From the NCBI GenBank assembly GCA_010093815.1, contig ML996578.1: 64,000 nt of DNA; one strand, given 5' to 3'. Positions within the stretch are counted from its first letter, which is position 1. The number at the start of each line of letters is the position of its first letter. Below, in pieces: positions 6,391 to 27,389 of the stretch. Made by a program: the position numbers and the translations under genes. This DNA is from Pseudovirgaria hyperparasitica. Taxonomy: Eukaryota. The notes below the pieces were generated by a model. It had not been told where the DNA came from, did no database searches, and saw only the letters and a program-made list of their open reading frames with translations.

Positions 6391-6841
6391 TTCGTCGTCG
6401 CAGGTTGGGTGTAGAATGTTTTAGACTGTTGTGGTCACTGACGAGCTTTAATTTTAGTTCTGAGTGAAGTCTGAGCTTAAGCGTTATGTCTTGTGTCTGA
6501 GTATGTGTTTATTGTGGAAGAGCATACATGGAGCTTCTAAAGTGGCAGGGCATCGCCCGCTTTTACACCAATTACGCGACAGGGCCGAGCGGCGCGTTGC
6601 GGTGTTGCGGGAGAGCTAAACGGCGAAACGATTCGCCGAGTGGCCGACCGGAGCTCAGTAAATGGATGGCGAGTTCGTGGAGCTCTCGTTGACACTGTAT
6701 TTGTCGACTTTAACTTTCGTCGCATTCCATTCACTTCCTTCTCGCTTCGCAACAGTCTTCATTCAACCTGTCTCACGCCTCTCTGTTCCTCCTTCAACTC
6801 CAGAACCTACGTCCGCGCTCCTGTTAGTCACATCTATCCTC

Positions 6842-8026
6842 ATGGACAGGTTAACACGCATGCTAGCCGCCGCCCAAGGCATGGGCGGCATGGGAGGCGG
6901 GCCTGCTCAAGTGAGTCTCTTCTGATATATGAGTCGCGTGCTTGCCCACGAATATACCTCACTGGTCATGTCTCTTGGGATTTCGAGCTGTGTGCTCGAT
7001 CTAGGACCCAAGACTGATGACACTATTCATAGGACACAAACCTCATCGACAACTCCGAAACCGTCTACATATCCTCTCTCGCACTTCTAAAGATGCTAAG
7101 ACATGGTCGTGCTGGTGTTCCCATGGAAGTGATGGGACTGATGCTTGGAGAGTTTGTTGATGACTATACCGTCCGAGTGGTGGACGTCTTTGCGATGCCT
7201 CAAAGTGGTACAGGAGTTAGTGTAGAGGCTGTAGATCCGGTGTTCCAAACGAAGATGATGGAAATGCTCAGGCAGACAGGTCGACCGGAGACTGTTGTCG
7301 GCTGGTACCACTCACATCCTGGTTTCGGCTGCTGGCTATCATCCGTCGATATTAATACCCAACAGTCGTTTGAGCAACTGACTCCCCGAGCGGTCGCCGT
7401 CGTTGTCGATCCCATCCAATCTGTAAAGGGCAAGGTCGTCATTGATGCCTTCCGTCTCATCAACCCGCAGACTCTAATGATGGGTCACGAGCCCAGACAA
7501 ACGACGTCGAACTTGGGCCATCTGAACAAACCTTCCATTCAAGCGCTTATTCATGGCCTTAACAGGCACTACTATAGCATCGGTATCAACTACAGGAAGA
7601 CTGGACTAGAGGAGAACATGCTCATGAATCTTCATAAGCACGTCTGGACGGAGGCCTTACAGATGGCCGATTTCAGGACAGAGGGGAAGAGAAATCAAGA
7701 CAAACTACAACGTCTAGTTGGACTGGCGGAAGGCTATGAGAAGCGTGTCAAGGAAGAGACTGAGCTAACGAAAGACCAACTGAAGACAAGATATGTTGGC
7801 AAGGTGGATCCCAAGAAGCGTGCGTATAAGTCTATAGCTGTACGGACGGATACTAACAACTATCTTAGATCTCGAAGACGTCGGACAGCAGCTCATTGAG
7901 GACAACATCGTGTCTGTCTCGCGCCAAATGATTGACAAGGAAGCCTCCGTACCAAACAAGCTGAACCGGACCGCAAACGGATCAAAGGCAAACGCAGATG
8001 CAGACAGCGAGATGGAGGAAGACTGA
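6842..8026 (+). CDS. RPN11: 26S proteasome lid JAMM deubiquitinase Rpn11, 2 introns
   Basis: [13 protein letters not shown] exon; [31 protein letters not shown] motif [17 protein letters not shown]; last exon ends ...MEED-TGA at 8026. Confidence 0.97.
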
Positions 8027-10409
8027 GCACCATCGACGTCTGTCATGAGGATTATGATTATGGGTTTGGCGAGGATAGGACCATGTGCTATACCACTGCC
8101 CGCTCCGGACGTGATCTTGGGCATGCATGGAGCGGTTGATACATATACTGGAAGGTATTCGCATCCAATCGGTGCGTAGACAACAGAATCGGACCTTAAT
8201 GAAACGCATCGAGTCAGGTTGATGATGACAATTCACGAGTTACTCCGCTACATTTAGCTTGGACTGTCCTTCCATCTTCCACGGTCTCCTCTCAAACCCA
8301 TGGCCCTTCTTCACCCGTCGTCCTCGTCTGTAATGCAGCGTTCGCAACAATGCCGCAAAGATACCTCCTCAAAAACCTGTTCTTGTTCCTCCGTTATTTC
8401 ACTAAATCCCAACACTACATCGCCCAAGTACCATCAGCACTCTTATACCCTCGTGCTTCCAACCGTTTGCGCAACTTCTCCACCGTTCCTGCCATCTGCC
8501 CTTCCCATTTAGACTTCTATATCGCCTTGCCAACAAATTCACCCAGAACTGGCAGCATTAAATTGCCATGCCGCACCTTCGATAGATTCACACACTTTTG
8601 TGGCTAATATGTCAGTCGCATCCTCTCAATTAGCAGCCGTTTCGTGTCGCGCTACACGCACGCAAAAGTTCCAGCACAGGCTCTTGCACCAAATACCCCG
8701 CATTATCCATCGAGGCCTCAAGAATACTGAAGAGGTGTTTCTGCCTTAGAGCTTAGGCATCACGGTGGGCCTTAGATATATAGAAGCTTCTTCAGTCAAC
8801 ATTACAAAGCAGATGGCAGAGTGCAATGATGCATGCTGTGCAGTCTTGCCACTCCAAGGTATTCTGTCATCAGTCAGAGATTACCCGACTATCGTGTGGA
8901 GGGCGCGCCACATCATACATGCATAAATAGCAAAGTAGATGCAGCAGGGTGAAGATGATGTTGACAGGAGCGGTGTACTCGCAACACATATTAACAATGA
9001 TGTTTCCAATAAACCGTCGTCGAAATCATTGATCTTATGTACACAATTGCATCGTACTTCTACAATAATTATTACAACTTCTGCGCATTCGAAATGCAGT
9101 AGATGGTGGGGGCCAGGCCAAAAGAGCCGTTGGATGTCAGCCAATCACGTAGACCTGTTACCCGTGCTGAAACACCTCACTTCAGACTCAGCGCGTCCTC
9201 GTCTGCCTCTCATCGTGTCTCCTCATTCCGTCTCTGCGACAGACGTCCACCTCGATATCTTGCTTCGATGCATAACCGGGCGAGTGAAAGACCTCCAGGT
9301 CAGAAGAGACGCGTCACCTCTACATACAGGGCCAAGTCTCGTGAGTCAGGCAGGATTCAGCAGACACATGACACCCGCATGGCCAAAGGGAAGTGATTTG
9401 CCATGAGATACTCATTTTCTTACACTTTTCCTGAGTTGGGGGGTAGAGGAAGTCGTGATCAGAAACATGTGAGACGAAGAAGTGGTGGAAAAAAGGTAGG
9501 GTGATGGAATTTGCACTGCAGAATATTGTTTTTGATGCTATCTTTCATATGCCAAACACGCAGACACACCATGGAAGAGGAGATATGAGTACCGGAGTGC
9601 ACAACAGTCAGTCCACAATAGCGATGTTAAGAGCATACTGCAAAGCGCGCGCGATTCCTATCATCTCAAGCGGGTATCATGACCCACGCGAAATCCTGCA
9701 ACACAAAGCCCCAGCGAGGCGGCTACAGAGTTATGACCTTGGCCACTCCATGCACTCACGATGGCTACAAGCTGGGAGCAGAAGAAACACAACCTTCCAC
9801 AGCGTGCTGGGGAGCATCGAGCAATCCCCCAGCAATCCGTTTCGCGCCTCTGTGCGCTGGTGTCTTGATTGGCTCACACTGCGTCCACGGATGGCGGCTC
9901 GCGTGGCATCTCCTGTTCATCGACTATTCTCTTGGCACTAATGTTTCACGATCCATACACTATTCACTTTCTTGTTCCTTCTCTCACTATTCGCGCTGTG
10001 TGTGAGGCCCTCTATATGCTTCACTACATGTCCATCGCCACTTTTTCATTCCTTCTACTTCCAAGATGGCTGTCGCCTCCTCACGTTATTCAAGAGTGCT
10101 ATTGTTCAACTCACGTTCCCTTGCACAATAGGACTTTTGAACCATGCCGACTTTGTCAAGAATACGTTGTGTGTTCGTTTCCGTCATTACCTGACGCTTG
10201 AGTTCTTATCTTTGGCCTTTTAACAGCTCGCTTCTCGCTATCGCAACGCTTCTCAGGACCTCGTACTTTCAACATTCTCACGCAGGTCGTGTATATACAT
10301 ACTTTTTTTATTCTCATATCTGGCAAATCAGGCAACGATATTACCACCATACAATCCATCTATTCTATTCGAGTCCCTCCGATATCCAACTAGCCTCACC
10401 CATACGGAA

Positions 10410-11576
10410 ATGCGATTCATCAACTTTGCTACAGTGCTGGCATATGTGGCTGGGCACGTCGGTGGTCACTCTTGGGCTGAACAGGATGTCGTCATTGACG
10501 ATAACGGCAACTACGTCGGCAAATTTGGGTACATGCGATCATACATGGCTCGGACCGACCCAGGCTGGGACCCCCTCAAGGTACAAAATCTTGTGGCCAA
10601 CGGTCCAAATCAACGCATCAGCGACTCCTCGTTGGTGTGCAAGGACACACAGCAAACTCCCCAGTACAGTGACCAGTATCCGAAACTGAAAGCGGCGCCG
10701 GGCAACTATGTTGCAATAAGGTACCAGGAGAACGGGCATACGACTTTCGCCGACTTGAAACTGTTGGAGAACAAAGTAAACGGTTCTGCGGTATGGGTCT
10801 ACGGTACTGCCGACCCTAAAGAGGGGGAAACCTTTGGAGATGTGCTTGCGTGGACCAGCGATGGTAGCGGCGGCGACAAGAGAGGCAAACTGCTCACGGT
10901 AGCAGATTTCGACGACAAGAGATGTCATGAGGTCAGCGACAAGCCAGTCTCCGTCCAGCGACAAAAGGATTTCCCAAACAACGGCCCTCTCTGGTGCGAG
11001 ACAAGTGTTCGCCTCCCGGAGGATGTGCCAGCGGGCAAGACCTATACTCTGTACTGGATCTGGGACTGGCCTAGCACTCTCGGCGACTTCAAGGACGAGT
11101 ACTACACCAGCTGTCTAGACATCGATCTTGTCGACAAGCCAGACCTCAGCCCCGTCGACACAAAGTACGTAAAGAACGGCGGCACCGGCCTGGCCCTCGA
11201 GCAACAAGACCCCAACACCAAAGCCGTGTCGGACTACAAGTCACGCACCGCCTCCTCGCCCGTCCCGCGCACTCCCGGCAGTGCCCCAACCGGCAGTGCC
11301 CCACTCGTCAAGGAATCTCTAGCTCCAACCACGCCAGTCTCCTCCGCAGCAGACTCTATTCCCACCCTCATCGGCCGTCCCGGTCCCGGCGCCGGCGATA
11401 CGAATGCCACCCCAACACCGGCTCCTGACGCCGACGGCATGGTCACAGTGACTATCAAAGAAACCGTCTACGTCACCCAGCCTCCGCCTGTCGCAACACC
11501 GTCCACTGCTCCATTAGGGCAGAGTCCAGACGGTGCTGTCGTTGTACCCGGTCGCAGGCGCGCGTTCTACGCTTAA
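10410..11576 (+). CDS. Secreted protein with His at predicted mature position 1 (DUF7492-like, LPMO-like) and Pro/Thr/Ser-rich tail
   Basis: Signal-peptide-like N-terminus then HSWAEQ; YQENGH; YTLYWIWDW; EYYTSC; intronless 388-aa ORF. Confidence 0.8.
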   Translation: MRFINFATVLAYVAGHVGGHSWAEQDVVIDDNGNYVGKFGYMRSYMARTDPGWDPLKVQNLVANGPNQRISDSSLVCKDTQQTPQYSDQYPKLKAAPGNYVAIRYQENGHTTFADLKLLENKVNGSAVWVYGTADPKEGETFGDVLAWTSDGSGGDKRGKLLTVADFDDKRCHEVSDKPVSVQRQKDFPNNGPLWCETSVRLPEDVPAGKTYTLYWIWDWPSTLGDFKDEYYTSCLDIDLVDKPDLSPVDTKYVKNGGTGLALEQQDPNTKAVSDYKSRTASSPVPRTPGSAPTGSAPLVKESLAPTTPVSSAADSIPTLIGRPGPGAGDTNATPTPAPDADGMVTVTIKETVYVTQPPPVATPSTAPLGQSPDGAVVVPGRRRAFYA

Positions 11577-13251
11577 GCTAAAGCGACAGACGCTGCTGTA
11601 GTCAAATCTTTTCAGTCTCGACATCTCCAGCAATGTGACAATTTCGTTCGTTTTTCGGCGTTTGTGCGCATCTTCATTTGGTCATCGGCATAGCGCTATA
11701 GAATTAGGACACCTTTTTTTAAACCACCGCATTGCTGGCGCTCTGGGCGCTTGGGCTATATTAAATGCCAAGGAGTTTTGTGTGTGGGTCAGGGCGTTTT
11801 CTTTTTTTTTTTTCTATCTGTCAAGGCTGCATGTATGTGTCTGTGTGTGATGCAGAAGAAACAAGGCATTGTTGGTATGGCATAGCGTCGGCGTCTTTTT
11901 CCCTGTATCGTGTTCCCATTTTGTAGTACCTGGGGGGCTGCCTGGACAGGCGCCAGATAAGTCAGTCTGCTTATATGAAAGGGTACTCTTCCCCAATTCT
12001 TGCCCTGAGCCGTGTATAGGTGCAGTGCTGTTATGTATGTATATCTGTCTGTCAACCAAAGATATCGAGTTATAGAGCAAAGTCACGTGCGCCCCCTCTA
12101 CAGGCGCTGATTGGCCACGCACCCAGCCCGCGGGGCAAGAGCGCGCAGCACACCCGTCGTCGAACACCGTGACATCGGAATATAACCACCCTACCCGCCC
12201 GTAATTAGCTGCCAAGCACACAAGACTTGCCGTCCGTCCAAGCTAGACTTGGCACTCCTCCCCGGGAAGATTCCTAGTCGTCTTTCTACAGATGGGATCT
12301 TAGGGAGAGAGGAAGGTGAACAGTTGATTGGTCGGGTAGCTGGTGGCCGGGGAAGGTGGAATCTGGGACTGGGGCGTGGAATGTCGTGACGTTTTCGGAG
12401 GGTTTGATAGTGACGGCGGGTTATATGTGCTAGCTGGGGCGGGAGATTGCGATGGGCGGTTGGTGCCAGATTGTTGGGTGGGTGGTGGGTCGGGCGCGGC
12501 GCGGTGTGGTCTTGGGCGATGGGTGCAGGAGGAGAAGCTTAGATATTCATATGTATAGATTGCTCTGGCGTATAGGGGGTGTTGTATGGTGGAAGGTAGT
12601 GCGTCATGCAGCGTTGTAGAAGGTGTTAGTATCGAGGCTATAATCATTCATCCATCCATCCATCCATCCATCTTATCAACATACCCTCCCATGAAACACA
12701 CAGTAATAAACACAGCATGAACTCACCTTCTAAGCGCTATCAGCACCTGATCCTGCCCTGCCCTGCCCTGCCCCTGCGTACCATTCATCTAACCACACAG
12801 GAAAGCCTCTCCCATTCTCTCAACATCTCCTATCCTCTCCTCCCACCCCATTGGCCTCACGCACACAATAAAGGGCAACCCAGGCAACAGCCATCGAACA
12901 CCGTGATCGCGATCCAGACCGCGTCTTTTTTTTCTCTTTGGAACAGAAAGGGTGGCCAAGTGCCACAGGGGGGATAGTGGTATGATCGGTGGATGTGGTT
13001 CTAGGCTCTGTCCACCTAGGCAGCAGGGGAGGGGAGCTTTGGCTGGCTGGCTGGCTGGCTGGCTGGCCAGAAGCGCAAGGTTTGTTTGGTGTGGGTGGAG
13101 TCACGTGTTGCGGTCTGGAATATGGGTGGGTGGTTATGCATGTGTGTGTGATGGTAGCTGAGAAGACGATCGGATATACATATATGTGTGTGTATGTATG
13201 TTATATATATCTATAAGAGTTACCACGCGTAGACGCAGCTAGAAACCTATG

Positions 13252-14830
13252 ATTGGCTACTCACCTATCAAAGAGGCAAGCACTTTCACCCCTGCATCCT
13301 AATACCCATTGGCTAGGAGTAGCATTCCTTGGCATATAGTCGTGATTAGATGTATCCAGAATGAAAAAAGGAAAGTGGACTCTTATGTCGATCGTTTCTC
13401 GACGTGCTTAGCATTACGTCCGCGGTATGTGGAGTCTATAGACCAAGAAGCTTTCCTATTAGTCGGACAGGTGTCTAAAGAGGGAATTTTATCTCTTAGT
13501 CGATCGTTTTCGCGGCTGCTTTGGTGTGCATCCGCAGTGCATAGCCAAGAAAAGATCTCATTGGTCTAACACACCTTCAAAGAGGAAATCTTAACTCTCT
13601 GTTAATCGTTTTCGCGGCTGCTTTGGTGTGCATCCGCAGTGCATAGCCAAGAAAAGATCTTATTTGTCCAACACACCTTCAAAGGAGAAATCCAATACTC
13701 GTGTTGATCGTTCTCGGTTATCCTGCAGTACATCCGCAGTGCGTTAGGTAGAAGGTGGAGAGGATGTCGAGCCTGACATTAATGCGCATCCTATTGGTCG
13801 GATACAGATCTAAAGGGGATATTCCATCTCCATGTCGATCGTGCTCTCGGCTTTCCATCGGGGAGCTCTGCTAGTCTTCCGTAGGTGGATAGATTCTAAC
13901 TTAACTAGGTATAGATACCGGTAGTGGAAACCATGAATACTATTGGCTCACGGACTGTCGAGAGGGAAAGTAGATTCTCATGTCAATCGTCTTCTCGGCT
14001 ATGCGCCGGGGAACTATCAAAGCCTTCCGTAGCATGGGCTCAGCGACCGATAAAGATCTCATTGGCCAGACACGTCTTCAAAGGAGAAATCTCATCGGCA
14101 TGTCGATCGTGCTCTCGGCTTTCTGTCGGGGGAGCGTTGTTCGTCTTCCGCGCATGGACGGTATAAGATTCGGCCAAGCATGGGAGTGATGAGAGATATC
14201 TTATTGGCTCATGCACTGCCGGCGAGGAAAGTGGATCTTGTCGCTGATCGTGTTCTACCACTACGTCCGCTGTGCATTAAGGAGTGGGACTGTGCGGGAG
14301 AGCTTGACTATACTGAGTATAGCCCGTCGATGATAGAGTCTCCTCGATATATAATATACGCTTATTGGCTGATATGTCTGACTAAAGAAAGACTTGACTG
14401 TATCTAGCATAGATCAGACCAGCCGTTTTCTCTACGCTCATTGGCCCACGCACCACACAAGAGGAAAGTGGATTCCACATGTCGATCGTATTCTCGGCTT
14501 GCTAGTTTCTGCATCCGGGGGGCTCATGCCCCTGTCTTCCGTCCCCAGCGCTTTACCCAGAACTTACTAGACGACCTGCGGGGCTCCAGAACGCTATGAG
14601 ACATCATTGGCGCAGCCGAGTTCAAAGAGGGAATTTGAATGCTGTGTCGATCGTTTTTTCGGCTATGGTGGACGGACATGTACCCGCATTAGCCTCAACT
14701 AGACAGCTCCACCGTGCTATACTTGGAGGTGGGTACGTATCCACAGATGACTCCACTATCTTACAATGATGTCATTGGTGCATCTGACTTCGGAAGAGGG
14801 GAATCTGCGTGTTATGTTGATCGGTTTCTC
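13252..14830. repeat. Degenerate array of a tripartite ~55-bp motif separated by variable spacers
   Basis: ATTGG/ATTAG/ATTTG at 13345, 13458, 13560, 13662, 13793, 13942, 14061, 14203, 14440, 14606, 14774, each followed 39-41 bp later by a TGTCGATCGT-like motif; partial units at 13252 and 14364. Confidence 0.9.
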
Positions 14831-16534
14831 GACGATACATGATGCGGTTCCGGTAGAGTACATACGCACCCTGACATCCAACCCGGTCTTCCAGGGGTGC
14901 ACGGTATCCACACGTGCGTGTAGAACGATGGGATCAGCTTCTTTGCACTTCCATTACCGAAAGTGATAATCTTCCGCTTTTTCTCATAATCTACCACCGT
15001 TGACCGAGGGCCAAATCAGCAAACCGTCATCCTACTCTGATCTCCGTGAGACTACCTCTTTCCGTGCATTTCCACTGGCAAGCCGACAAACTTGCAAACC
15101 AAGAGTACCCTCAACTTAACATAAACGTACTACCCGTAGCTATCTTCTTGTGCTCGATATAAATTCACGCGTCAAGAGCCTAGCCGCCTCCCCGAAATGG
15201 CCGAGCCTGAGACAGACTGAGTGATTGAAGCGGTCTGTGCGGGACTTTTCTCGTGATACCGAGTGGTGCCCACTCAAGATATCCAACCCGCACGTCTCTC
15301 TTGCTTGTTCCCTATACACCATGACAAACCAAAGCTACCGCAACGTCGCACGTAACATATGTCGACATCCATCGATATCTTCCCCAACAAGAGTGGCCTC
15401 TGCCTCACATGGTACCACCACCCCATCGCCAGCTCACAGCCTCTATCTGAAAACACTCCACGATGACACCACCTCCTTCCAAACAAACCTCACCAAGAAG
15501 AAGTTCTCCCACGCCCCTTCACGTCATTACTTGGCTCGTATCGATCTCCGCGTGCCGGTCGTTGCAATCGTGCGAAGTATAGATGTCGTTGGGCGGAGCG
15601 GCAAGGAAGGCCTGGCTTGAGTCGTGCTCTGCGAGCTTGCTTCCGCGCTATAGCCCAATCACAAGCTCAAACCACTATTCCTCGCTCTCCTTCCGCCATA
15701 GCGATACACAGTCCAGGATGTATCATGTATGCGTAGATCGAAAGCGGCCGACTCTGCTCGTGGTGTGATTCCAAAGCCGTAGGCATAGGTGAGTGAGGTG
15801 GAGCCATCATGTGCAGATGATGCATCCATCCATCCATCCATCCATATCCATAGCGGCGGCGTCCGTGGGGCCGAAACCCGTTCGAACAGGCAGGCAGGCA
15901 GGTAGGTATCGCGTCGGCGGTGAAATGTGGATGTGGATGTGGAAGTGTCCTGCCAGAGACCAAGGGAAACGATAAAAAAGCACGCTCGTACCTCGTGGCA
16001 CGGATTTTACGAGCGGTGCTGTAATACTAGTATATCGAGCGAGTCCAAAGCAGGACGGCCACCTATCAATGTACTCTGGATAAAACAAACATTGTCGGAT
16101 GGCGTTATTAGGGGCCGCAATCGCGGAGCTTCACTCGGTTCTCTACTATCCTACTATAACCCGCTTGTTCATTACAATAATTCGCCGTCTGTATTTGTCC
16201 TTGTTGGGTCGATTTGTAGTCTCAGATCTGCGCATCTACTGCACGTGCGTACGTACCACCCTCAGCCTACGTACTTATCAGTCGTGTTTATGTACTTAAG
16301 TAAGAAGATAACTCTAGCTCCTTGTAAATAATTTTTCTTAACTCTTACCTACCGTTCTTACTCCCAAAAGCGGTAACTTGGGTGCGGGACTAGTAGAGTT
16401 CAGATTTGTTGAATACGGAGGATAAGAAATATTAAATACATATATATAGAGAGAGAGAAAGAGAGAGAAGTAAAGGATGCGGGCGGCGGAGTTTGAACGA
16501 CGGCAAAGGGGTTGACTTTTGGTCTCGTTGTGTG

Positions 16535-16601
16535 TCTGTCTGTCTGTCTGTCCGTCTGTCTGTCTGTCTGTCCGTCTGTCTGTCTGTCTGTCCGTCTGTC
16601 C

Positions 16602-16633
<32 letters not shown>
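16535..16633. repeat. (GTCY)n tetranucleotide microsatellite
   Basis: Uninterrupted GTCT/GTCC run. Confidence 0.95.
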
Positions 16634-16636
<3 letters not shown>

Positions 16637-16860
16637 CTTGTGTACGTCCCGTGGATGCGAAATTCTTTTCACCTGTCTCGACGACCGGGAGGGGGGACTT
16701 GCGACACGCATGTATATGTACGTATGTACAAAACCACATGGATGTAAGCAAACGGGAGGAACCATCTTATTACGGGAGTGAATTGACAGGAAACGCTTCT
16801 TCATACGATGCCCATGCGCATGCTGGCGTCGGTAATCTTCTTATAGAGACCTACACACTG

Positions 16861-16900
16861 ATAGACTTATAGACTTATAGACTTATAGACCTATATACTT
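16861..16900. repeat. 8-bp tandem repeat (ATAGACTT)n
   Basis: ATAGACTT x3, then ATAGACCT and ATATACTT. Confidence 0.85.
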
Positions 16901-17186
16901 CTATACCTCACGCTACTATATACTAATCGACAAAAATAATCCCAAAAATCCACACATATACAGTATAGTATAGTCATGACATGCGCGGACGTTATATCTA
17001 TCCCTTCCAACTCCACTCTCACAAAACAGTATAAATGCTGCCGCCCATATAAACCAAACCTCCCAAAAATCCCAACGATAACATACCCGAAAATGCGTTC
17101 TTCGTAACGGTCGTCTAATCCATGCGTCTACGCAATCTAATCAATGCCTCCACCCACCCCTCCCCATCGCCCTCTCACACCCACAC

Positions 17187-20100
17187 TCACGCAGGCGACG
17201 ACGGTACATCCAAAACACCCCTCCCAACCAGCGCGCTCTTCCGCGCAATTTTTTCAGCCATACCCTTGATAGGGCCCCCAGCCAACAGCTCAAACACGCT
17301 GACCTGCGCCCTCGCCTCCCTAAAGATCCAGTTACGCACTTCGACAGCCACGAGACTGTCGACGCCGTAGCTGCTGATGGGCTTCGAGGTGTCGATGTCT
17401 GTTTCGGGCATGAGGAGACTGGAGGCCAGCTTGGCGACGAGTGCGTCGAGGACGAATGTGGTTGCTGCTTGGAGCGATGCAGCGCCTGGGAGGAGCATGT
17501 TGAGAGATGCGGATTTCGTTGCTGTCATTGTTGGGGTTGATGTTGAGTTTGTGGGCTCCGGGATGAGGTCGAGGCGGCGGTACCAGGAGAACCTGTTGTC
17601 GTGGGCCCAGAGCGGGTTGAAGATGGAGGACTGGGCAAGCAGGCCGCCGGACGAGATGCCGAGTATAGTCTCGGCGGGTGGAAGATCCGCGTCTGGTGTA
17701 TCCGGCCTCGTCGAGAAATGGGGCGTCAGAAGGGCCTGAACTTCTTCCATCGTAATAGTTCCCACACCGTCACTCTTCAACCCCTCGACGATACCAGACT
17801 TTTCACTTCCTGCAAGCCAGCCAACGCCGGTGGTGACGGTAAGAGCAATGGCAGACCCGCGTAAGCCTTGAGTCTGACGGTATGTTGCAAGTGCGTTCTG
17901 GTAAGCGTTACCGGCATTGTAATTGGCCTGGCCTCGTGTGCCTACGACGCCTGCTACGCTGCTCATGAGGATGAAGAAGTCAAGATTGTTCGGGAGGAGG
18001 GTGTGGAGATTGTACGACCCTTCAATCTTCGGTCTCGCTGCTGTACAGTAGGTGTCGTAAGACATCTTTTCAAACAAGGTGTCGGAAAGAGACATGGCGG
18101 AATGGATGAGACCAGCCAAGGGAGGAAGCTCGCATTCGATTCGGGTGATGGTGTCCTTCAGCTCTCCAAAGTTGCACACGTCACAGGCGTAACCCTTGAC
18201 ATCTGACGCTCCCATTTGCTCCAACTCGACCATCTTCTTATAAGCGTCAGGGCTGTTCGCTCCGGATCGGGAGATGATGGCCAAATACTTGGCGCCATGT
18301 CTGACGAGGTATTGAGCCAGACTGTGGCCAACGCCACCAAAGCCTCCAACAATCATATACGTCGCATCCTGTCTTAGCGCGAGCGAACTTGGTCTAGGCA
18401 CCACTGCGACCGTTGTGGAAGCATTGGACGTGACGACGACTGGATCAGACGATTGGCTCAAATCATTCAGCGCGGAGGAGATCTGGGACATGTCATAGAT
18501 CCGTGTACCTTCCAGATTCCGCATGACTCGCGGCATGCTGAATGCTTTCGTCATGGCGTCATGAAATTGGTGGTTGCCTTTTCGAGCTCGTCTTGACATG
18601 GAAGCGTTGAGGTCAACTCTGGTATAGGTGAATGGCATTGTCGTATCTGGTAGGACGAGGGGCTTCTGTTTCTGTAGCCACGGAATGTCGATCACATGGA
18701 CAATGCGACTGCCTTCATCTGTTTTCATTTAGCAAAGAATTGCAACACAAGAGTAGTTCAAGATCATACCTTGAGATAGACAGTCACAAACCGCATCAGT
18801 GATCTCCTCGTCCTGACCCAGTACCACTAGTTCAACACCCTCTTGCCCTGTTGCCTCTAGTATCACTTCAGCACAGTCCTGTTCATCCTCGATCAAGATA
18901 GTAGTTTGGTTGAAGAAGATGCTATCGTGCATTGCAAAGAGCTTGCGCCATCTTCTGATCAGATCCGCTTTCTGTGCTTGGCTCTTGACGACTATCCAGA
19001 CTCTAGTGCTCTCATGCTGATGGCTCATGCTGATATATCTTATCAAACTGAGTGCTGTTTCGTTTGTGGTGCATAGTAAGAGTATGCTCGTGGCATGGGC
19101 ATGTGGCCCCAAGACTTTGTGCGAAACGACAGCATCATGAGACAACGCACAGGCTTCCTCGTATTGAACTCCTTGTGGGAGAAGCTTGACTGAGCTGCGT
19201 GGTACGCGCACTCTGTTCCGAACCAGGCCACCCGAAGGTTCAAAAATGACGACACGGTCACCTAGGAGTAGATCAGAGAATGTCGCCCGTGAGCCTTGTT
19301 TAGTTGGTGGAAGTCTTGAGATGAACCCAGCCGCAAACTGTCCGAGGACGGTATTTGTTGTCTGGCCACTGAAGGTATGGTAGTCAACCGATCGAAGATG
19401 GACCGCTTTGATCGAAACTTCGACCTCGTCATCAGCCAGCTCTGTTGTCATCATCTGTTCATCTACCACGAAGCGTAATGAATCGTATTGGCCAGCGGCT
19501 CCTATGTCCAGACTTAGCGGTCCTGGCTCCTGTTCGAATGACGTTTGCACCAGCTTTGCTTCTCTACCACACTCGACCTGGAGCAGCTCGTTCATGTTGT
19601 TCATTTCTTTGACCCTCGGAATCATGACTTTTCCGTCGCGGACTGCATACTCGTATTCCTCGCGATCGTACTCTTCCACAAAGACACTTCTGAAGACAGC
19701 AACCACATTTTTAGCCGCACTCCGTGACTCGTCCTCGCAGTCGAGGTCCAACGTGTACAATGCCAAGCCAGAGTCCTCATTGCGCATCGATCGAAAGATG
19801 CCATGAACAGGGGCTAGATCAGGGCGGGAGCATTCAATTTGTGCGCCTCGCGTGAGCCAAAGTGTACCGGACGAGTGCATGGTCAACTGTCGAAATGCTT
19901 GAAAGTCATGTTCGGACATGCCGGAGATGAACGGACGCTCGAGCTCCAACAGCGATATGCATTTACGATCTTTGCATGCAGTAGTAGCAGTTTCGACATC
20001 CATGACCACTGCACTATGGCCTTGGCTCAAAAGCTCCGCCTTGACTGCGTCTGTGAGTGCGTTGATTGCTTGAGAAACTTCCGTAGGTTGGACCAGAATG

Positions 20101-23100
20101 ATTTCGTCAACAGCATCAGCCACTTGCAGGCTTGGTGACGATTGAGGCCGAACTAGTCCGCAGATAACAGCGAAACCATCGCGTTGGAATCGCTGATGAA
20201 TGCTGTTGAAGCCTCGAGCAGCCAAAAGTTCATTTGTAATTGTTGGGTTCCAATCGCTCCTAGCACCCGTCGTGTTTTGCTGTAACAGTATGATCTTGGC
20301 ATCCATATTCAGTAGCAATCGCAGATTGTCCAAAACCACGCCAGCGTCTTCAAGCTGAACGCTGTCGACGTTGAAGATGAGTAAATGGTACGTATTAGCG
20401 ACATATCCTTGTTCTTGCGGATCTTTGTGTATTTGCAGAGGCCTAAATTCCAAATGTCCGGCCCAGTTCTCGAGCTTCTCGCAAATTCGTTTCCCATTAT
20501 CATTGGTATTCGTAACGTTGTATTGAAAGAACGGCGGCGCAGTCTCTGCGCTGTGCAACGAGTGCAGTAGCATAGACTCGACGAACGGCATTGACCGCTG
20601 GCCAACCTCCAAGACCGACCCCTTCGGGGTCTTGTGCGCAAGAATGGAGCAATAATGTAACAAGAAATCGTCGATCGAAGTGTCATGTGATAGGGATGTC
20701 GAGATAGACTTCGTCCCGAGGTTCACGTCCTCGTTCCAGACAAAGGCACTACATAGCTTCGCCTTTGGATCAATAAAAGTACTTGCGTTGGATGCTTCGG
20801 TAGGAGCATCGAATCTTGTATAGCCGACACCTTCGAGGATCACTTTCGGTGCACTGAAATCCTCATTTCCGAATATCATGTTACCCTTCACGCCTCGAAG
20901 ACCATGCTGAGACGAAGTCGCATAACCTCTAAATGTTCCTCCAGTATTTTGGGGAAGATCGGCAGAGACATAGATACGTTCGATTGATGTCGGCACCATT
21001 GAGTCGGAGGCAGTCAGTACAACCGTCTGGAAAAGGCCATCGAGCGTCGTAGGATGTAGCAGATGGGGCTGCTCAAAGTTCTCTGGTAGAGAAGACTTGG
21101 TATCAGGAATCCTGATGGTAGCCGTCACCACGCCAGATGGCGATAGTTTTAATTGGTGTACTGTCTGGAACATTGGGCCGTATTTCAAGCCGGTGGCCTC
21201 GAATTTGGCATAGACATCTGCGGGAGCCACGGGCGTAGCGTCTACGCAAGATTGTTTGTATATCTCTTGTCTTTTGGTCCAATGTAGCTGTGTGAGTTTT
21301 GTGTCCTTGTATAGCACTCTGAATTCCCCACTGCAATGCTCTTGCCAAGGCTGCTCGCCTAGCCGTGCTGTGATGTGGAAAGCATGAATCAGAGTGCTCT
21401 GCGGCAGTGATGCTGGAGATGCTGTGTCCTTTGGTCGTATTGTTAGGCTCGTTTCCAAGCCTTGTGGCGTTGTGGGTATAATCATAGCCTTGCCAATCTT
21501 AACATTCTGCAATTCGAAGCCTTGCACGACTTGCTCAGTATCCAAAATCTGTCGAGCTGCTTCGAGGACCATGCATAGCATGCCAGCAGCCGGGTACAGC
21601 ACGGTACCTTGGACTTGATGGTCCAAGACCCATGGCATTTCCTTGACCCTAATCGTGTTTCGCCATTTCATATCGATGTTGTTCGAGTCTGGCGTCAACG
21701 CGCCTACGAGATCCAGGCGAGGCAGTTTTCGAAAGCGATATGCAGCGCTTGCACGAGCCTCATGCCAGTAAAGCTTGGAGTGATTCCAAGGATAGGGTGG
21801 TAGATCCGTGATTAGCTTCGAGTCGGTACTCCCGTTGCGGCACAGGCTGGATAGCGAGACAGGGTACCCATGGGCCCATATAGTGCCCATGGCAGATAAT
21901 AAGCTTTGGGCAGAATGCTTGTTTCGTATCAGGGTAGAAGCGTATATAGGCTGTGGCTGCCCCATTCCCTCGAATATTTGTCTTATGCTAGATTGTAATG
22001 TTGCATGGGGCCCGATTTCAACGATAATATCTGCTCTATGGGAGGCTTCGTGGTAACGCTTTGTATCTAGATTATACGCCATTAACTTTTCCAGCGCTGC
22101 GGTAAACTCGACTGGAGAAATCAGATTAGATATCCAGTATGATGGCCCAAGATCCAATTGACGCTCGTTAGGATACACAGTTGAGAACATCCTGGGGGCG
22201 CCATTCTCCGGCTTGGCAGTAGGACGAATGTGCTTGATTGCATCGGTATACTTGTCCACGACCTTTCGCATGTACGGTGAGTGGTACGGACATTCAACCT
22301 TGAGTAGTCTTGCAAACACGCCGTCAGCATCGAGCTGTGCTCTGAGCTTCTCAATCCCAGCAGCGTTTCCGGAGAGGGTCACGTTTTTGGGACTGTTGAT
22401 GCAAGCCACCACAACATCACTGACGCCCGAGTCTTTGATGGCCTGTTCTGCTTCATGTCTGGACAGACCGACTGCCATCATGCTGCCCTGTACGTCAGGG
22501 TCTCGTGCCAACGCTGCGCTACCGCGGCCACGATGGTATGCCAAACACCAGGCATCCTCTCTTGAGATTCTGTGCGACGCATATGCAGCTGCGATCTCGC
22601 CGCTAGAGTGTCCGATGACCGAAACCGGTTTGACGTCCCAGCTGCAAAGTAGGTCGACTATCGCGACCTGGAGGACAGTACACAGGGGTTGACTGTATTC
22701 AGCTTGGTCCAATTTTGAGTCATACTGGTTTCGGGAAAGCTCTGTCAGGGCGGACCAGGGTGCTCCGAGACTCTGCATATACCTATCGGCAGCAGCGATA
22801 CTTTGACGGTATGTGTCGTACACGAGGAGCTCATGTCCCATTCTTCCCCAGTGGCCGCCCTGGCCGTTGAATACGAAAGCGATTTTCGGATTGTCGGTAC
22901 TGCGTTGGACGGTTGGAGCTGTCAAGCTTGAGCCCAACGCGGTATGCAAGTCAGTTGTCGAAGTTGCAACGGAAAAAGATCTCCATGCAAAGGTCGAGCG
23001 CCGAGAGCACAAGGTGTAAGACAAGTTACTCGCCAGCTCCTCGTCCACAAGATCTGGGCGGTGGAAGCCATCTAGGTAGGAGTGAGTGGTATTCATCAGC

Positions 23101-24676
23101 CTCGTGACTCCACTTTGCTCAGGTGAAGACCACACGTAAAGCTTTGGTGATGTTGTGCTTTCAGGCTCGGCTATCCCATGTATGATCTCAAAGGACATAT
23201 CGCTTGAAGCTTCCGAAGGCGAGATGCTGTCAATGGACAGAACATTATGGTTCCCGACAAGCCCGTGATTTCGAAGGTAGCTTGCAGCATCATCGATGAT
23301 AACGTGGGCCAATGTTCCGCCAAAGCCAAAGCAGTTGATCGATGCCCGCCTGATACCATGGGTAGGCCAGGTTGTGAGCTCTGTGGGGATGGTCACTCGG
23401 TAGGCGTCCAGGTCATTTTCCGGACTGGGTTTCTCAAACCATAGATTTTGGGGAATGAGGCCCTGTTCGACGGCCATGATAGCCTTGAGGATGCCAGCAA
23501 GGCCAGCACAGCCTTCGAGATGACCAATGTTTGGCTTCACGGAGCCGCACAGAATGGTCTCACCAGGTCGTCTGTTGGCGCCGATTGTTCGTCCTATTGC
23601 ACGCAACTCGGCCGCGTCTCCCGCAGTTGTCCCAGTGCCATGAGCCTCGAAGTATTGTGTGTCGAGCATGCTAAGACGTGCTTTGCGGTATGTAGACGCT
23701 ATGAGATCAGCTTGAGCGTCACTGCTGGGTAGAGTGATTCCAGGAGTCTTGCCATCCTGGCAGACAGAAGAGGCCCTCACAACAGCGCGGATCGTGTCAT
23801 TATCGCGGATCGCATCATCCAAGGATTTCAGAACCAGAATGGAAAAGCCTTCGCCTCGGGCGTATCCGTTGGCACGGTGGTCGAAAGAGTAACACTTGCT
23901 ATCTGGACTGAGAAAGTTCAGCTGACCCATGCTCATGATTGGATCCGGTGCAAGTATGGCACCAACGCCACCTGCAAGAGCGACGGTGGCCTCTCCCGTC
24001 CTGATGCTCTCACAGGCTAGGTGGAAGGCGACAGACGAGCCGGAACAGCCAGTGTCCAAGGTCATACTAGGACCTCTGAGGTCGAAGAAGTGGCTAATCC
24101 GATTGGACAGAAATGCAGTGCTGTGGCCAGTGGAGCCGTAGACTGGCAGATTCTCTGCATCGATTGCAGCGCTGGACAGATATCAGTGGAGGTCATATAA
24201 AAATTCGGGAGGACAACAAACAGTGGTTGATAGTCTTTCATGAACGAGCCGACGTAGCATGAGGCCTGGCTACCGGCGAGCTGGGACATGCAGATGCCGG
24301 CATTCTCAATAGCCTCGTATGCAGTCTCGAGTAGAAGTCGTTGCTGAGGATCCGTGGATACGGCCTCGGCAGCGGTCAAGGAGAAGAATGGGGCGTCAAA
24401 GGCAGCAATGTTCTGTTCCAGGAAGTAGCCACCACGGACGTTGATGGAGCCATGTCTTTTCGAGTCGGGATGCCAGAAGGCGTCTATGTTGAATCTATCT
24501 TTGGGGATATCCTTCAAGGCACAACGAGCATTGACGAGGAAGTCCCAGAACTTCTGGGGAGAAGTGGCGGTATCAGGAAAACGACATGAAAGGCCTACGA
24601 CAGCTATTGGCATAGCAGGGTCATACTGTGGGGCACTTTTGGCAGATGGCGAATGGAGATTGTGTTGCGATGCCAT
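17187..24676 (-). CDS. Highly reducing iterative type I polyketide synthase KS-AT-DH-(psi)MT-(psi)ER-KR-ACP, 2 introns (~24172-24221, ~18720-18769)
   Basis: KS PIAVVGLSCRFP, DTGCSGS, EAHGTGT, NIGHLEG; AT GHSSGE; DH HQVQGTVLYPAAG; KR IVGGFGGVG and YNAGN; ACP YGVDSL. Confidence 0.95.
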
Positions 24677-27389
24677 GTCCTCCTACACAACAGCAACAAC
24701 AACAACAGGCGAGTCGCAGACGTCCGCACAGAGTATGAAGAAGTCCAGCAGCACGAGGAAGAAAGGATAGCCAAAAGAAAAGGGCCGAGAGTGAGAGCGC
24801 AGCATGCTAAATGGAGGGCGAGAGTGGGGAGGAGATGGAGTGGCGATGGATATATATGTAGAATATGCACATTGATGGTGAAGTCGGGACAAGGGTCAGC
24901 GGCAGGGTAGAGAGATGTTTGGGACGTTGGGAGAAGGCCATTGAGGACGGGATAAAAGAGAGGGATTTGTGGTGAAGGTTATCGGCAAGGAGAATAGAAG
25001 GGGGAGATGGCGGAGGAATTAGAGAGACAGCCAGTGGTCAGTGAAAGAGAGTTGGGGAGTTGGGGGGAGATGGGGAAGTTGGGAAGTTTTGGGGGAGAAA
25101 GGGAAAAAGGGAATAGCCAAGACTTTCGAACGCAGAGGCGGGCAAACTTGGAAGTCACGGACGGTTGTTTGTTTAGGTGGAGGAGGATGGATTGATTAGG
25201 TAATTAAGGACGAAGAGCCAAGCTCAGTCAGTGGCTCTGTTGCCGAGAACAACTTAACACATCTTAACAGATGACAGACCGGCTCACTTTTCTCACCTTG
25301 CTCTCATCATCATCACTTTCTTGCCGTCAGACTTCCTCACTTTTTACTCACTGACTCGCCATCTCTCATCTCATCTCATCTACGACAAGTCTGGGGAGGC
25401 TACAGGAAGCACGAGTGTAGTGAGTAGTAGTAGTCATACCGGTCGGGAGTAGGCATGATTTGATTGGGATCGAGGGTACTCGAGTCAGGCGGTGGGCGGG
25501 TGGTCAGTGTCAGTGTCAGTTTCGCGACATGTATGTACCTCGGGAAAAAGCCATAGAGGTTCGAGATGTTACGGGTCTGGGTCCTGAGGCGGCACACAAG
25601 ACAAGAATGCGATGCATCTGGACGATTGTAGGAGTAATTACGGCCGGTAATGTAATGGGCATGTTTGATGATATTGCAGCGAGTGAGTGTGATGGAGCGG
25701 GACGGGGAGCAGGTTGGTGGATGTGCAGAGCCAAGAAGAGTGAAGCCACGGGAGAGAGAGAGATGAAGAGTCAGAGTCAGAGTCAGAGTCAGTCGAATGG
25801 ACGGTGATTTGATTAAGAGACGATGCAATGCAATGAATAATGGATGAATGGATGAGTGAATGAATGTGAGGATGTGAATGTGACAGTGTTATGGTTCACT
25901 ACTCGTGGAGCAAGTGCGTGCAGGAGCAGTGGTTGTGCGGGCAGGTGCAGGTGGGTGTGTCTGCAGCCGAAAGGGGAAAGTAGACTGAAAGAGGAAAGTG
26001 GAATGGAAACGGTCGCGTGGCCAGGACAGACGCAAAAAAGGAGTGGGTCGGTCAGGAAGAGGCAGCATCAGCATCTCAGTAATCAAAGACGTGCATACAC
26101 TTATCTGCACGATTGCGCGTTATTGCGTTATTGTGTGATTGCGCCATTGTACTATTATTGCACTCTGCACTATTATTGCACTGCACTGCTCAATACCGGG
26201 ACTGCCCTGGAGAGCGTGCAAAATCACAGTGCATTATCCTCTGCACTATAGGTCGGGTGGTGTTGCACCATGTATTACTATTACTGTTACTATTACTGTT
26301 AGGCTATCAGGCCATTCAAGGTTGACAAGGTAGTGAGTGTCGGGTAGATGTAAGGCAGGAAGTGCCCCACCAGTTTCATCAACTGGCAGGAACGAGTGGC
26401 AGCAGCAGGCGACAACAAGGATGGCGATGACGATGACGATGTGTCTGCATTTGTCAGGGAGGGCAGGCACGACAGATGGCACTTGGCTACCTTTACACAT
26501 GGCAAGCACGACGAGGGCAGGGCAGGGCAGCTAATTATGGCAGGCACGCGCGTGGCAAGACAGGGCAAGGGCGACCGGCAAAGATGCACGTAATTCCCAC
26601 CTGGCCGGGCAGGGACTTGCATCCTTCAATCTTTAATGCGATGGCGACTTGACCGTGTTTTGTATCTTGTATTTTACCTTGTTACTACTTATTAATCACC
26701 TGCCAACAGCCTGAATCTACAGCAGTCAACAGCAAGACGGGCGAAGAAGACAGTATAAAACACGTTACTAATCCATCTCTACCTCTCTCCCTCTACACCC
26801 ATACTGTCGCAACTACAGTAGCTGTCCGACACAGGTCCCGGGCTGTCTGCTGCTCTGCTCCACCGTGACACCTCACTGCATAGCTGCACCACGAACTGCA
26901 ACACTGCAGCATTCATCACTGTGCACCGGACGTCCCCTTGAATCAATCAATTACCTGGTCGTCTTGAAACCCACACAAGCCAAAACCAGCAATGCAGCCC
27001 GCCTGGTCCTGCAGTGCCTTCGTCTAAACCTGGTCCTGGCCGACCGAGCGGGGCGGCTGCACACCTTGGGCACCAGCTTGGCTGGCCCGCTGATTAACCG
27101 GCGCTCGCTTCCGAGCTTCTACCACACACTTCATATTCATCTCCCTCCATCATCACCACCACTCCATACCACACGCACCGCACGCACCGCGCAACTCTTC
27201 CTTTCAATCCCTCGGCTACATAATAATACTACTCCTCTTATACACATGCGACATCATGCTTCAGACTTGTCCACTTCTTCGTCCGCGAATGCCTTCGTCC
27301 ACGACATGACAACTTGCCTGAACTGCTACTCTGCTCTACAGACACTCCCTTGCTCTCGTCCTCGCTCTCGCACTCGCTGAACTTTGTCC

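Follow-up and report, generated by a model that had tools for sequence, protein, structure and literature searches.

The gypsy insulator of Drosophila carries about a dozen direct Su(Hw) sites of ~12 bp, set ~30 bp apart inside a retrotransposon, and in fission yeast clusters of TFIIIC B boxes are heterochromatin boundary elements. In the cyp51A promoter, the repeat carries SrbA and CCAAT-complex sites. The cyp51A promoter repeats of Aspergillus fumigatus (TR34, TR46 and variants) are 2-4 nearly identical copies of 34-53 bp that lie inside the promoter and are young and azole-selected.

An array of 11 units in a window of 64,000 nucleotides (64 kb) from Pseudovirgaria hyperparasitica resembles these repeats (PMC7711461): both are tandem duplications of short DNA, putatively regulatory in our case, in a filamentous fungus, with a copy number that changes by unequal exchange. 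In contrast to the cyp51A repeats, the array is an old one whose 11 diverged units measure 102-237 bp, and it occupies the space between two genes' 3' ends. As in the gypsy insulator, direct copies of a putative protein-binding core with variable DNA between them would form one cis element; the core is, in contrast, a 60-95-bp assembly of several boxes with putative binding, whereas gypsy contains single-factor sites and belongs to an animal. The array shares with the fission-yeast B-box clusters repeated short boxes without a gene product, and its GTCGATC is loosely B-box-like; it nevertheless falls short of the B-box consensus because one T is missing, and no tRNA-like context was found with Rfam or ARAGORN. 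Promoter and intergenic minisatellites likewise consist of non-coding units, tens to hundreds of bp long, that follow one another head to tail and evolve by duplication and exchange, but the array differs from minisatellites in general by the contrast between boxes and linkers, by a core spacing held within 1 bp across deeply diverged subfamilies and by its position between 3' ends. Finally, polycistronic snoRNA and tRNA gene arrays also have short tandem units with conserved boxes and a variable remainder, and the array departs from them in having no C/D or H/ACA boxes, Rfam match, cloverleaf or common fold. In the portions available to us of work on fungal CGATCG/CCAAT motifs, on intergenic tandem repeats and on MATE/Spe-motif elements (supplements and subscription journals being outside the scope), no such array is described.

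On the plus strand, from 13345 to 14880, sequence reading and profile give 11 head-to-tail units, all in one orientation, which derive from an ancestral unit of ~100 bases (about 102 bp). A 72-nt core profile recovers all 11 in the 64-kb window (E 1e-10 to 9e-17), at the very starts proposed in the initial annotation; its only other matches there are at 13248-13281, a partial unit (E 0.077), and at ~13154-13172, an inverted fragment (E 0.3). The features of the locus are as follows.

10410..11576, plus strand: left neighbour, DUF7492 gene (Pfam PF24320, E 3.6e-80)
13151..13183, minus strand: inverted unit fragment at the left edge, with ATCGT, a pyrimidine stretch and a box-4 remnant (profile envelope, aligned 13154-13172, E 0.3)
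13248..13281, plus strand: partial decayed unit, ATTGG, N14 and AAAGAGG without an ATCG box (profile E 0.077 and sequence reading)
13345..13457, plus strand: unit 1, ATTAG variant with CGA for CGG, subfamily B (profile, alignment, tree)
13458..13559, plus strand: unit 2, 102 bp, ATTAG variant, subfamily A (repeat families, alignment, profile)
13560..13661, plus strand: unit 3, 102 bp, GTTAATCG variant, subfamily A (TRF, repeat family D8)
13662..13792, plus strand: unit 4, ATTTG and GTTGATCG variants, subfamily A (alignment, profile)
13793..13941, plus strand: unit 5, subfamily A, long form CGG-N28-CCG (pattern, alignment, profile)
13942..14060, plus strand: unit 6, subfamily B, GTCAATCG variant (pattern, alignment, profile)
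14061..14202, plus strand: unit 7, subfamily A (repeat families D1, D3, D4 and D7, tree)
14203..14363, plus strand: unit 8, subfamily B, GCTGATCG variant, CGG box lost (alignment, profile)
14364..14439, plus strand: decayed extra unit, ATTGG, N15 and AAAGAAAGA, ATCG box degraded and displaced (sequence reading)
14440..14605, plus strand: unit 9, subfamily B (pattern, alignment, profile)
14606..14773, plus strand: unit 10 (pattern, alignment, profile)
14774..14880, plus strand: unit 11, GTTGATCGG variant with CGA for CGG, right end of the array (pattern, alignment, profile)
16926..24682, minus strand: right neighbour, highly reducing polyketide synthase gene (KS ... KR-ACP; Pfam, open frames, spliced RNA contigs)

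The locus is a tandem repeat: TRF detects a 102-bp period and the direct-repeat families D1-D8 span the array. It is also unique within the window. The gapped pattern ATTGG-N10-18-purine box-N8-22-GWYRATCG has seven matches in 64 kb, all in the array and on the plus strand, versus 0.01 expected from shuffled sequence, and the composite sub-motifs are equally confined to it (5, 6 and 7 matches versus 0.06, 0.25 and 0.01 expected). The core reads, on the plus strand, ATT.G at 0, a purine box at about +19 to +29 and (G)ATCGT at +44 to +50, followed by CGG at +53 to +58 and by CCG 16-17 or 28-29 nt further on; it measures 60-95 bp, is kept in almost every copy, and its first three boxes stand about two helical turns apart. 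From the start of ATT.G to ATCG, units 1 to 11 measure 46, 45, 45, 45, 45, 44, 45, 44, 45, 44 and 46 bp, which corresponds in 11 of 11 to the 39-41 bp that had been given for the distance from ATTGG to TGTCGATCGT. From ATCG to the next unit the distance is 57-193 bp, varying by up to 136 bp, and the unit periods are 113, 102, 102, 131, 149, 119, 142, 237, 166 and 168 bp, with no helical phasing seen from unit to unit. The 237-bp period of unit 8 contains the decayed extra unit at 14364, which the core profile missed at E<=10, while the three 102-bp units are nearly all unit, without spacer. Units 7 and 8 are a dimer that repeats units 5 and 6 (periods 268 and 261), and the inverted fragment pairs at 13155-13170 with unit 6 in a 16-nt inverted match of 94%.

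The four boxes of the initial consensus are all present, but ATTGG is exact in only 8 of the 11 units, two having ATTAG and one ATTTG. The emphasis placed on a CGATCG palindrome is not supported: it is intact in just 6 of 11 units, the first CpG being lost in five, and the invariant part is ATCG (11 of 11; ATCGT, 10 of 11). In 10 of 11 units the next box, at +53 to +56, is CGG or CGA, the CGG box being lost in one to three; CCG lies 16-17 nt past CGG/CGA in six units and 28-29 nt past it in units 5 and 7, as does the second CCG of unit 6. Hairpins can be picked out by eye (TCTCGG...CCGGGGA, and stems round the purine box), with no common register across units.

Boxes and linkers differ sharply in conservation. 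Over all pairs of units, identity is 0.91 in ATTGG, 0.85 in TGTCGATCGT, 0.69 in the purine box and 0.69 in TTTCTCGGCT, versus 0.34 and 0.40 in the linkers. Between subfamily A (units 2, 3, 4, 5 and 7) and subfamily B (units 1, 6, 8 and 9), the same boxes keep 0.90, 0.85, 0.67 and 0.65 identity while the linkers are at 0.21-0.32, the random level, as expected from the earlier statement that boxes and spacing are kept and the intervening DNA has diverged; the mean column identity of the aligned repeats is 43%. Since the linkers have been randomised between the subfamilies, the array is old, and it is an old tandem repeat that is locally still rearranging. Contrary to what had been supposed, the linkers are not free: members of a subfamily have homologous DNA between their boxes, and the 'spacers' can be aligned from unit to unit and contain additional common boxes. 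Rather than being unrelated inserts, these 'spacers' have diverged from a single ~102-bp ancestral unit and have taken up insertions. Patchy exchange between units occurs as well, and it can mimic local conservation: units 2 and 3 have the same sequence at offsets 57-101, but only 61% identity ahead of that stretch.

We tentatively favour, at a little under even confidence, the reading that this is an old array of composite docking sites on double-stranded DNA for transcription-factor-like proteins, with the binding itself putative. The array would have grown from a ~102-bp unit through duplication of single units and of A+B dimers, unequal exchange and insertions between units. Each core would offer a composite double-stranded site to sequence-specific proteins, the CCAAT-binding complex being a likely partner along with factors of the zinc-finger, GATA-like or Zn-cluster type, and the whole array may serve as one multi-copy element acting in cis, whether enhancer, silencer or boundary, in the gap between the DUF7492 and polyketide synthase genes. 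The main rival, which we consider rather unlikely, is a functionless, decaying minisatellite-like repeat whose box pattern comes from chance, from post hoc choice of the boxes and from patchy unequal exchange or conversion.

The column statistics bear on both. Firstly, the variance of column conservation is reached by 1 of 2000 uniform-rate simulations on the inferred tree, and the count of very variable columns by 46 of 2000. The conserved columns also cluster (lag-1 autocorrelation of 0.51, a value attained in 0 of 5000 column permutations; A versus B alone gives the same result), and in a non-circular test the per-column changes in four independent parts of the tree co-vary, modestly, with 160 of 20000 permutations reaching the value; these variance, clustering and combined lineage results argue against a functionless repeat. 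The box-versus-linker comparison foreseen in the initial annotation goes the same way, 20% of box columns versus 44% of linker columns differing in five independent sister pairs, a contrast with some circularity, since these data also served to define the boxes. Secondly, the decaying minisatellite finds support in the 20 highly conserved columns (at least 10 of 11 identical) and in the longest conserved run, both within uniform-rate expectation (reached by 342 and 432 of 2000 runs, respectively), the former being not exceptional. Correlations between independent lineages, weak or null (r 0.01-0.25), favour it as well: r is 0.08 per column between one set of sister pairs and another (reached in 5529 of 20000 permutations), 0.19 between subtrees A and B (1345 of 20000), 0.01 between A and C (8957 of 20000) and 0.25 between B and C (451 of 20000). 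So do the visible recent exchange (the identical 3' part of units 2 and 3, and the dimer duplication), the loss of boxes in several units, the decay of whole units at 13248 and 14364, and the setting in a microsatellite-rich, gene-free gap. Thirdly, the geometry of the repeat is hard to square with such decay. Between A and B the linkers are random while three separate short boxes stay at 0.67-0.90, so that conversion tracts would implausibly have to be confined to the same 5-10-bp boxes in every unit, and the core spacing holds to within 1 bp whereas tail lengths differ by as much as 136 bp.

Statistically, the case that the boxes are under selection is real but not overwhelming. The earlier proposal of such selection gains support from the clustering and the combined lineage test and none from the count of conserved columns or from two null lineage comparisons. 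With that column count and the weak lineage comparisons as caveats, the boxes are conserved above the inter-box DNA at fixed spacing, as in a homotypic cluster of composite sites. Further observations count against the docking-site reading: no promoter seen in the RNA contigs adjoins the array, the composite motif is absent elsewhere in the window, the boxes are decaying, units exchange sequence patchily, and all the evidence comes from paralogous copies in one genome.

The convergent genes have their stop codons at 11576 and 17187, which leaves the 5.6-kb gap annotated at the outset, and the RNA contigs place the array between the 3' ends of convergent transcripts. These contigs come from two runs of one study and were treated as RNA, being spliced at GT..AG introns. 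They cover 6001-12089 and 16926 onward; those of the DUF7492 gene extend to about 11996-12089, and those on the polyketide synthase side begin at 16926-16927 and, where spliced, confirm the one intron of that gene (18719-18769). The array sits in the 4.8-kb gap between the two sets, which has no cover apart from scraps at depth 0.9-2 in bins 12539-13472 and 15341-15807, a lack that carries no information on expression; no promoter adjoining the array was seen among the RNA contigs. A DNA contig over 13075-13532 has a depth of 283, versus 273-279 in the long flanking contigs, which puts the left part of the array at single-copy depth; the 56-nt piece common to units 2 and 3 has a DNA depth of 638. 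Contig depth covers the left part; no piece of the DNA contigs lies over 13661-16643, though 0.99 of the sampled words are present, and this hole carries no weight as evidence.

A binding array for a regulator of the polyketide synthase cluster was rejected, the composite motifs being absent from every other gap of the 64-kb window. As the composite motif occurs nowhere else in the window, it is not a general regulatory module here, and the 28 long reading frames of the window scanned with Pfam include no Zn-cluster gene.

A more specific form of the docking-site reading, which we regard as a long shot, is a selectively maintained landing pad. On each of about 11 cores of 60-95 bp, proteins centred on the CCAAT complex would assemble along a single face of the DNA, and the cores would jointly serve as a chromatin boundary, insulator or transcriptional roadblock that separates a secondary-metabolite polyketide synthase gene from a housekeeping neighbourhood. 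If so, the array would be the fungal equivalent of gypsy's Su(Hw) array or of the fission-yeast B-box boundaries, built from a module undescribed before. Should the cores be bound, a filamentous fungus would have a natural regulatory or boundary element of many copies next to a polyketide synthase gene, which would give a handle on the insulation or tuning of such genes, and the grammar of one composite site could be worked out from its eleven natural variants. Should they not be bound, the locus would be an instructive decaying minisatellite that mimics box conservation.

It is improbable that the units are tandem genes, or precursors, of small non-coding RNAs, with the boxes as Pol III A-box/B-box-like promoter elements or as processing signals. 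Type-2 Pol III promoters consist of an internal A box and B box. Two boxes ~40 bp apart within a short repeated unit resemble this layout; ATTGGC.CA in subfamily B is like the first half of an A box, GTCGATC is like a B box minus one T, and a T-rich stretch follows ATCG, with T4 in units 2 and 3 and T6 in unit 10. The sampled RNA runs also leave room for small RNAs, for which they are poorly suited because their contigs are spliced and mRNA-like. Against this, the two boxes stand 5-6 nt closer together than those of tRNA genes, and a T-run terminator is missing from most units. Rfam, in a 6-kb scan at E<=10, has no match within units, its three matches (mir-297, SNORD22 and the L31 leader) lying outside them and far below the gathering score. 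ARAGORN finds 0 tRNA genes in the array at the default and 90% thresholds; at 70% it makes nine scattered calls in no common register, versus five in a control of equal length. RNAalifold gives 0 consensus pairs on either strand, and mean folding z-scores of -0.73 (plus strand) and -0.46 (minus strand) go with no common fold. Related candidates were rejected too: a snoRNA cluster, for which there are no C/D or H/ACA boxes, no UGAUGA/CUGA or ACA register and no Rfam match; an array of tRNA genes or of tRNA-derived SINEs, for which there is no cloverleaf and no Rfam match; and a CRISPR-like repeat-spacer cassette, since the repeats are diverged and the 'spacers' are homologous between units, with lengths of 57-193 bp. 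The repeat-spacer small-RNA cassette suggested earlier is thereby unsupported: no Rfam match in the units, no consensus fold on either strand, and 'spacers' that are decayed unit DNA.

Comparably improbable is the relic of a mobile element, now left as a single copy, whose repeats would be internal or subterminal ones that once bound a transposase or recombinase, or else retroelement promoter monomers. Arrays of protein-binding repeats typify the ends of transposons and the 5' regions of certain retroelements, which favours this origin, as does the inverted unit fragment at the left edge (~13151-13183). It is at odds with the 11 of 11 units in one orientation and with the single-copy DNA depth of the left part. 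Across 11814-16869, 20 frames of 77-145 aa (taken from 45 frames of at least 60 aa in the gap) yield no Pfam match at E<=0.1; long direct or inverted repeats at the termini are absent, the microsatellites of the gap alone matching the rest of the window, and the 64-kb window holds no second copy of the array. There is likewise no RIP signature. RIP is indicated by TpA/ApT above ~0.89 and (CpA+TpG)/(ApC+GpT) below ~1.03; the array, at 0.78 and 1.15, misses both thresholds, and a RIP-mutated repeat was rejected on these values. Its GC content is 0.486 and its CpG observed/expected ratio 0.96.

A decayed protein-coding tandem repeat, to which the 102 bp (34 residues, a multiple of three) of the three youngest units might point, is effectively refuted, in line with the original view that this is no protein repeat: of the other periods (113, 131, 149, 119, 142, 237, 166 and 168) only 237 and 168 are divisible by three, the six frames hold 24, 17, 21, 16, 24 and 26 stops per 522 codons, the frame in which a given box falls changes from unit to unit, the conserved positions form contiguous blocks of 5-10 nt that show no three-base rhythm, and five reading frames of the array scanned have no Pfam match.

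Beyond the window, collections of prokaryotic, viral and metagenomic sequence were scanned, which, holding no fungal genomes, do not bear on fungal relatives. The three-box pattern occurs at at least 120 prokaryotic and 11 viral loci, all single, chance-like matches; among the matches listed, five match the profile at E<=0.01, with 15-19.5 bits and at most one per locus, versus 37-57 bits for the real units. The pattern scan of metagenomes returned at least 120 loci, each a single match with no second match or full-length profile match. Among the metagenome matches listed, the best partial profile matches have E 0.003-0.009, and 66 of the at least 120 have a match length of 56 nt, mostly representing one conserved bacterial coding-like sequence.

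Some boxes resemble described binding motifs, which we note as leads. CCAAT reads on the minus strand in 8 of 11 units. Five of the 11 purine boxes match the BrlA-response-element consensus (C/A)(G/A)AGGG(G/A), as given in the accessible part of PMC3741515, and TCGATC, the complement of the white-collar-complex motif GATCGA given in the accessible part of PMC7493669, is found in 6 of 11 units, both consensuses being short and degenerate.

The array comprises eleven units (u1 to u11) lying head-to-tail on the + strand from 13345 to about 14880, and reading the sequence placed all eleven at precisely the starts proposed in the initial annotation (13345, 13458, 13560, 13662, 13793, 13942, 14061, 14203, 14440, 14606 and 14774). 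A gapped pattern of the first three boxes has seven matches in 64 kb, every one inside the array (0.01 expected), and its extension by the CGG box has five, against 0 expected. A profile of the 72-nt core retrieves 11/11 units (E 1e-10 to 9e-17); outside them, its only matches in the window are the first two remnants listed here, and the third, found by sequence reading, accounts for the 237-bp period of u8. The array repeat was not found elsewhere in the window, the rest of which matches only the microsatellites of the gene-free gap.

Remnants outside the eleven units
13248-13281, half unit (profile match, E 0.077)
about 13154-13172, inverted fragment of a unit (profile match, E 0.3)
14364, decayed additional unit (sequence reading)

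From the start of ATT.G (CCAAT on the other strand) to ATCG, the distance in u1 to u11 is 46, 45, 45, 45, 45, 44, 45, 44, 45, 44 and 46 bp, and from ATCG to the next unit start it is 57-193 bp. The first three boxes are spaced about two helical turns apart and CGG follows one turn further, while the unit-to-unit distance is free; no common remainder modulo 10.5 was found among the ten periods (113, 102, 102, 131, 149, 119, 142, 237, 166 and 168; mean 142.9). A CCG box follows CGG at 16-17 nt in six units, at 28-29 nt in u5 and u7 (also the second CCG of u6) and at 21 nt in u10. The conserved module therefore measures 60-95 bp, and occupies nearly all of each of three 102-bp units. The variable spacers of the initial annotation are mostly diverged unit DNA with insertions, not unrelated inserts.

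Occurrence of the boxes
exact ATTGG, 8/11 units
8-13-nt purine run beginning at +18 to +21, 11/11 units
ATCG, 11/11 units
ATCGT, 10/11 units
CGATCG palindrome, 6/11 units
CGG or CGA at +53 to +56, 10/11 units

A tree of the cores has three groups: A (u2, u3, u4, u5 and u7), B (u1, u6, u8 and u9) and the pair u10/u11. Both among all units and between subfamilies A and B, identity is higher in the boxes than in the linkers.

Mean pairwise identity (all pairs; A versus B)
ATTGG, 0.91; 0.90
TGTCGATCGT, 0.85; 0.85
purine box, 0.69; 0.67
TTTCTCGGCT, 0.69; 0.65
linker 1, 0.34; 0.21
linker 2, 0.40; 0.32

The initial annotation had called for substitution rates to be compared between boxes and linkers, and the outcome is mixed. 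On the one side stand this identity contrast; the variance of column conservation, reached in 1/2000 uniform-rate simulations on the inferred tree; and the clustering of conserved columns, with a lag-1 autocorrelation of 0.51 (0/5000 column permutations), or 0.48 in the A-versus-B comparison alone (0/5000). Pooling four independent tree parts also gave a significant association, the observed value being reached by 160/20000 permutations, and the number of very variable columns was reached in 46/2000 uniform-rate simulations. On the other side, a count of 20 highly conserved columns was unexceptional (reached in 342/2000 such simulations), as was the longest conserved stretch (432/2000), two sets of independent sister pairs gave r 0.08 (5529/20000 permutations), and parsimony steps compared between subtrees gave r 0.19 for A versus B (1345/20000), 0.01 for A versus C (8957/20000) and 0.25 for B versus C (451/20000), all counted as not supporting heterogeneity. 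Between sister pairs, 20% of box columns differ versus 44% of linker columns, a partly circular contrast, since these same data served to define the boxes. It is likely, though unproven, that the boxes are under site-specific constraint. The core spacing supports this, being constant to within 1 bp where the tails differ by as much as 136 bp. Nor would patchy conversion readily account for the maintenance of three separate boxes of 5-10 bp in subfamilies whose linkers have been randomised. A functionless, decaying minisatellite, with which the unexceptional column count and run length are compatible and the clustering and fixed core spacing less so, is unlikely, though it survives best among the rivals.

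The best-fitting reading, to which we give slightly less than an even chance, is that each core would form a composite docking site for sequence-specific proteins on double-stranded DNA, because the boxes are short, their spacing follows helical turns, the unit distance is free, and RNA and coding signals are lacking. Small RNA genes, for which the boxes would be internal promoter-like elements, are improbable: the three Rfam matches at E<=10 all lie beyond the units and far under the gathering score; ARAGORN reports no tRNA in the array at the default or 90% threshold, and at 70% nine scattered calls in no common register (five in a control stretch); RNAalifold finds no base pair in either strand, and single-unit folding z-scores average -0.73 (+ strand) and -0.46 (- strand). 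A mobile-element relic, which could have left such repeats, is equally doubtful; no Pfam match at E<=0.1 was found in the 20 scanned of 45 listed frames of at least 60 aa in the gap. A decayed protein repeat is very improbable, as the initial annotation had argued, with 16-26 stops per 522 codons in all six frames and boxes in differing frames.

Candidate partners of such docking sites are leads only. The CCAAT-binding complex might bind the minus-strand CCAAT, exact in 8/11 units, and CGG...CCG would presumably suit Zn-cluster proteins. The purine box might attract a C2H2 factor, five of the eleven fitting the BrlA response element consensus given in PMC3741515. A GATA-type factor might recognise TCGATC, which is present in 6/11 units and complementary to GATCGA, the white-collar motif (PMC7493669).

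Non-coding tandem repeats with sites for protein factors are already a known kind of element. They include CTCF-binding macrosatellites, the gypsy Su(Hw) array, the B-box boundaries of fission yeast and, in A. fumigatus, the promoter repeats TR34/TR46. Unlike all four, the present array is built of eleven deeply diverged copies of a 60-95-bp core with several boxes, it sits between two 3' ends, and no host element can be identified for it. Searches of open-access literature brought up no account of a comparable layout.

Several features record the history of the array. Firstly, an A+B dimer was duplicated (u5+u6 and u7+u8, periods 268 and 261). Secondly, in the stretch 13446-13649, u2 and u3 (102 bp each) are identical at offsets 57-101, whereas 22 of their first 57 positions differ; the mosaic boundary is sharp. 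This mosaic suggests a recent event of unequal exchange or conversion within the array, and its identical 3' and diverged 5' parts indicate that exchange between units is still ongoing. Thirdly, differences show the usual transition bias of about 2:1, and RIP left no signature (TpA/ApT 0.78, (CpA+TpG)/(ApC+GpT) 1.15, CpG observed/expected 0.96). The left part of the array has single-copy DNA-contig depth (283 versus 273-279 in flanking contigs), and a 56-nt piece common to u2 and u3 has about twice that (638). Neither DNA run has contig cover over 13661-16643, although the two contain 0.99 of the sampled words; this is uninformative and probably a filter effect linked to microsatellites.

The window is fungal nuclear DNA, as RNA contigs with spliced GT..AG introns and the gene content establish (histone deacetylase domain, MFS transporter, multicopper oxidase, UvrD-type helicase, highly reducing polyketide synthase).

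Neighbours of the array and microsatellites of the gap
10410-11576, + strand, CDS of the DUF7492 gene (Pfam E 3.6e-80)
16926-24682, - strand, highly reducing polyketide synthase (Pfam domains, RNA contigs)
16529-16633, (TGTC)26
13040-13067, (TGGC)7
12645-12672, (CATC)7
15823-15845, (CATC)6

RNA contigs of the DUF7492 gene begin far upstream at 9065 and extend past the CDS to 11996-12089; those of the polyketide synthase (stop codon 17187) start at 16926-16927, giving a 3' UTR of ~260 nt. The placement between the 3' ends of convergent genes is thereby upheld, and the transcript ends at 12089 and 16926 put the array in a 4.8-kb gap, at 1.2 and 2.0 kb from the two gap ends. In the polyketide synthase, KS, KR and a C-terminal ACP domain of SdgA type were identified; contigs of both RNA runs cover the gene, which has a single confirmed intron of 51 nt (18719-18769). 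The 28 long reading frames scanned contain no obvious tailoring gene or Zn-cluster regulator. The DUF7492 protein weakly resembles LPMO_10, below threshold (E 0.018). Such tetranucleotide microsatellites are abundant in the gap; (CATC)7 and (CATC)6 match one another, and (TGTC)26 matches a further run at about 31180-31211.

One 5176-nt contig of RNA run X3 spans several genes (6688-12089), with GT..AG introns at 6911-7032 and 7820-7868 and an opposite-strand CT..AC intron at 8864-8918, so that around 8.2-9.1 kb transcripts from the two strands must either overlap or have been merged. A metagenome pattern scan matched at least 120 loci; among the matches listed, 66 are of one length, 56 nt, and mostly represent a single conserved, coding-like bacterial sequence (ATTGGTCAGCC...GTTGATCGTGGTCTCGG) that has no relation to the array described here. 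Loose ends of DNA contigs at 6280, 8501 and 9534 (run X2) share one linker-like sequence, apparently an artefact of the library rather than part of the genome. The window has a single tRNA gene, tRNA-Leu (CAG), at 917-999 on the - strand.
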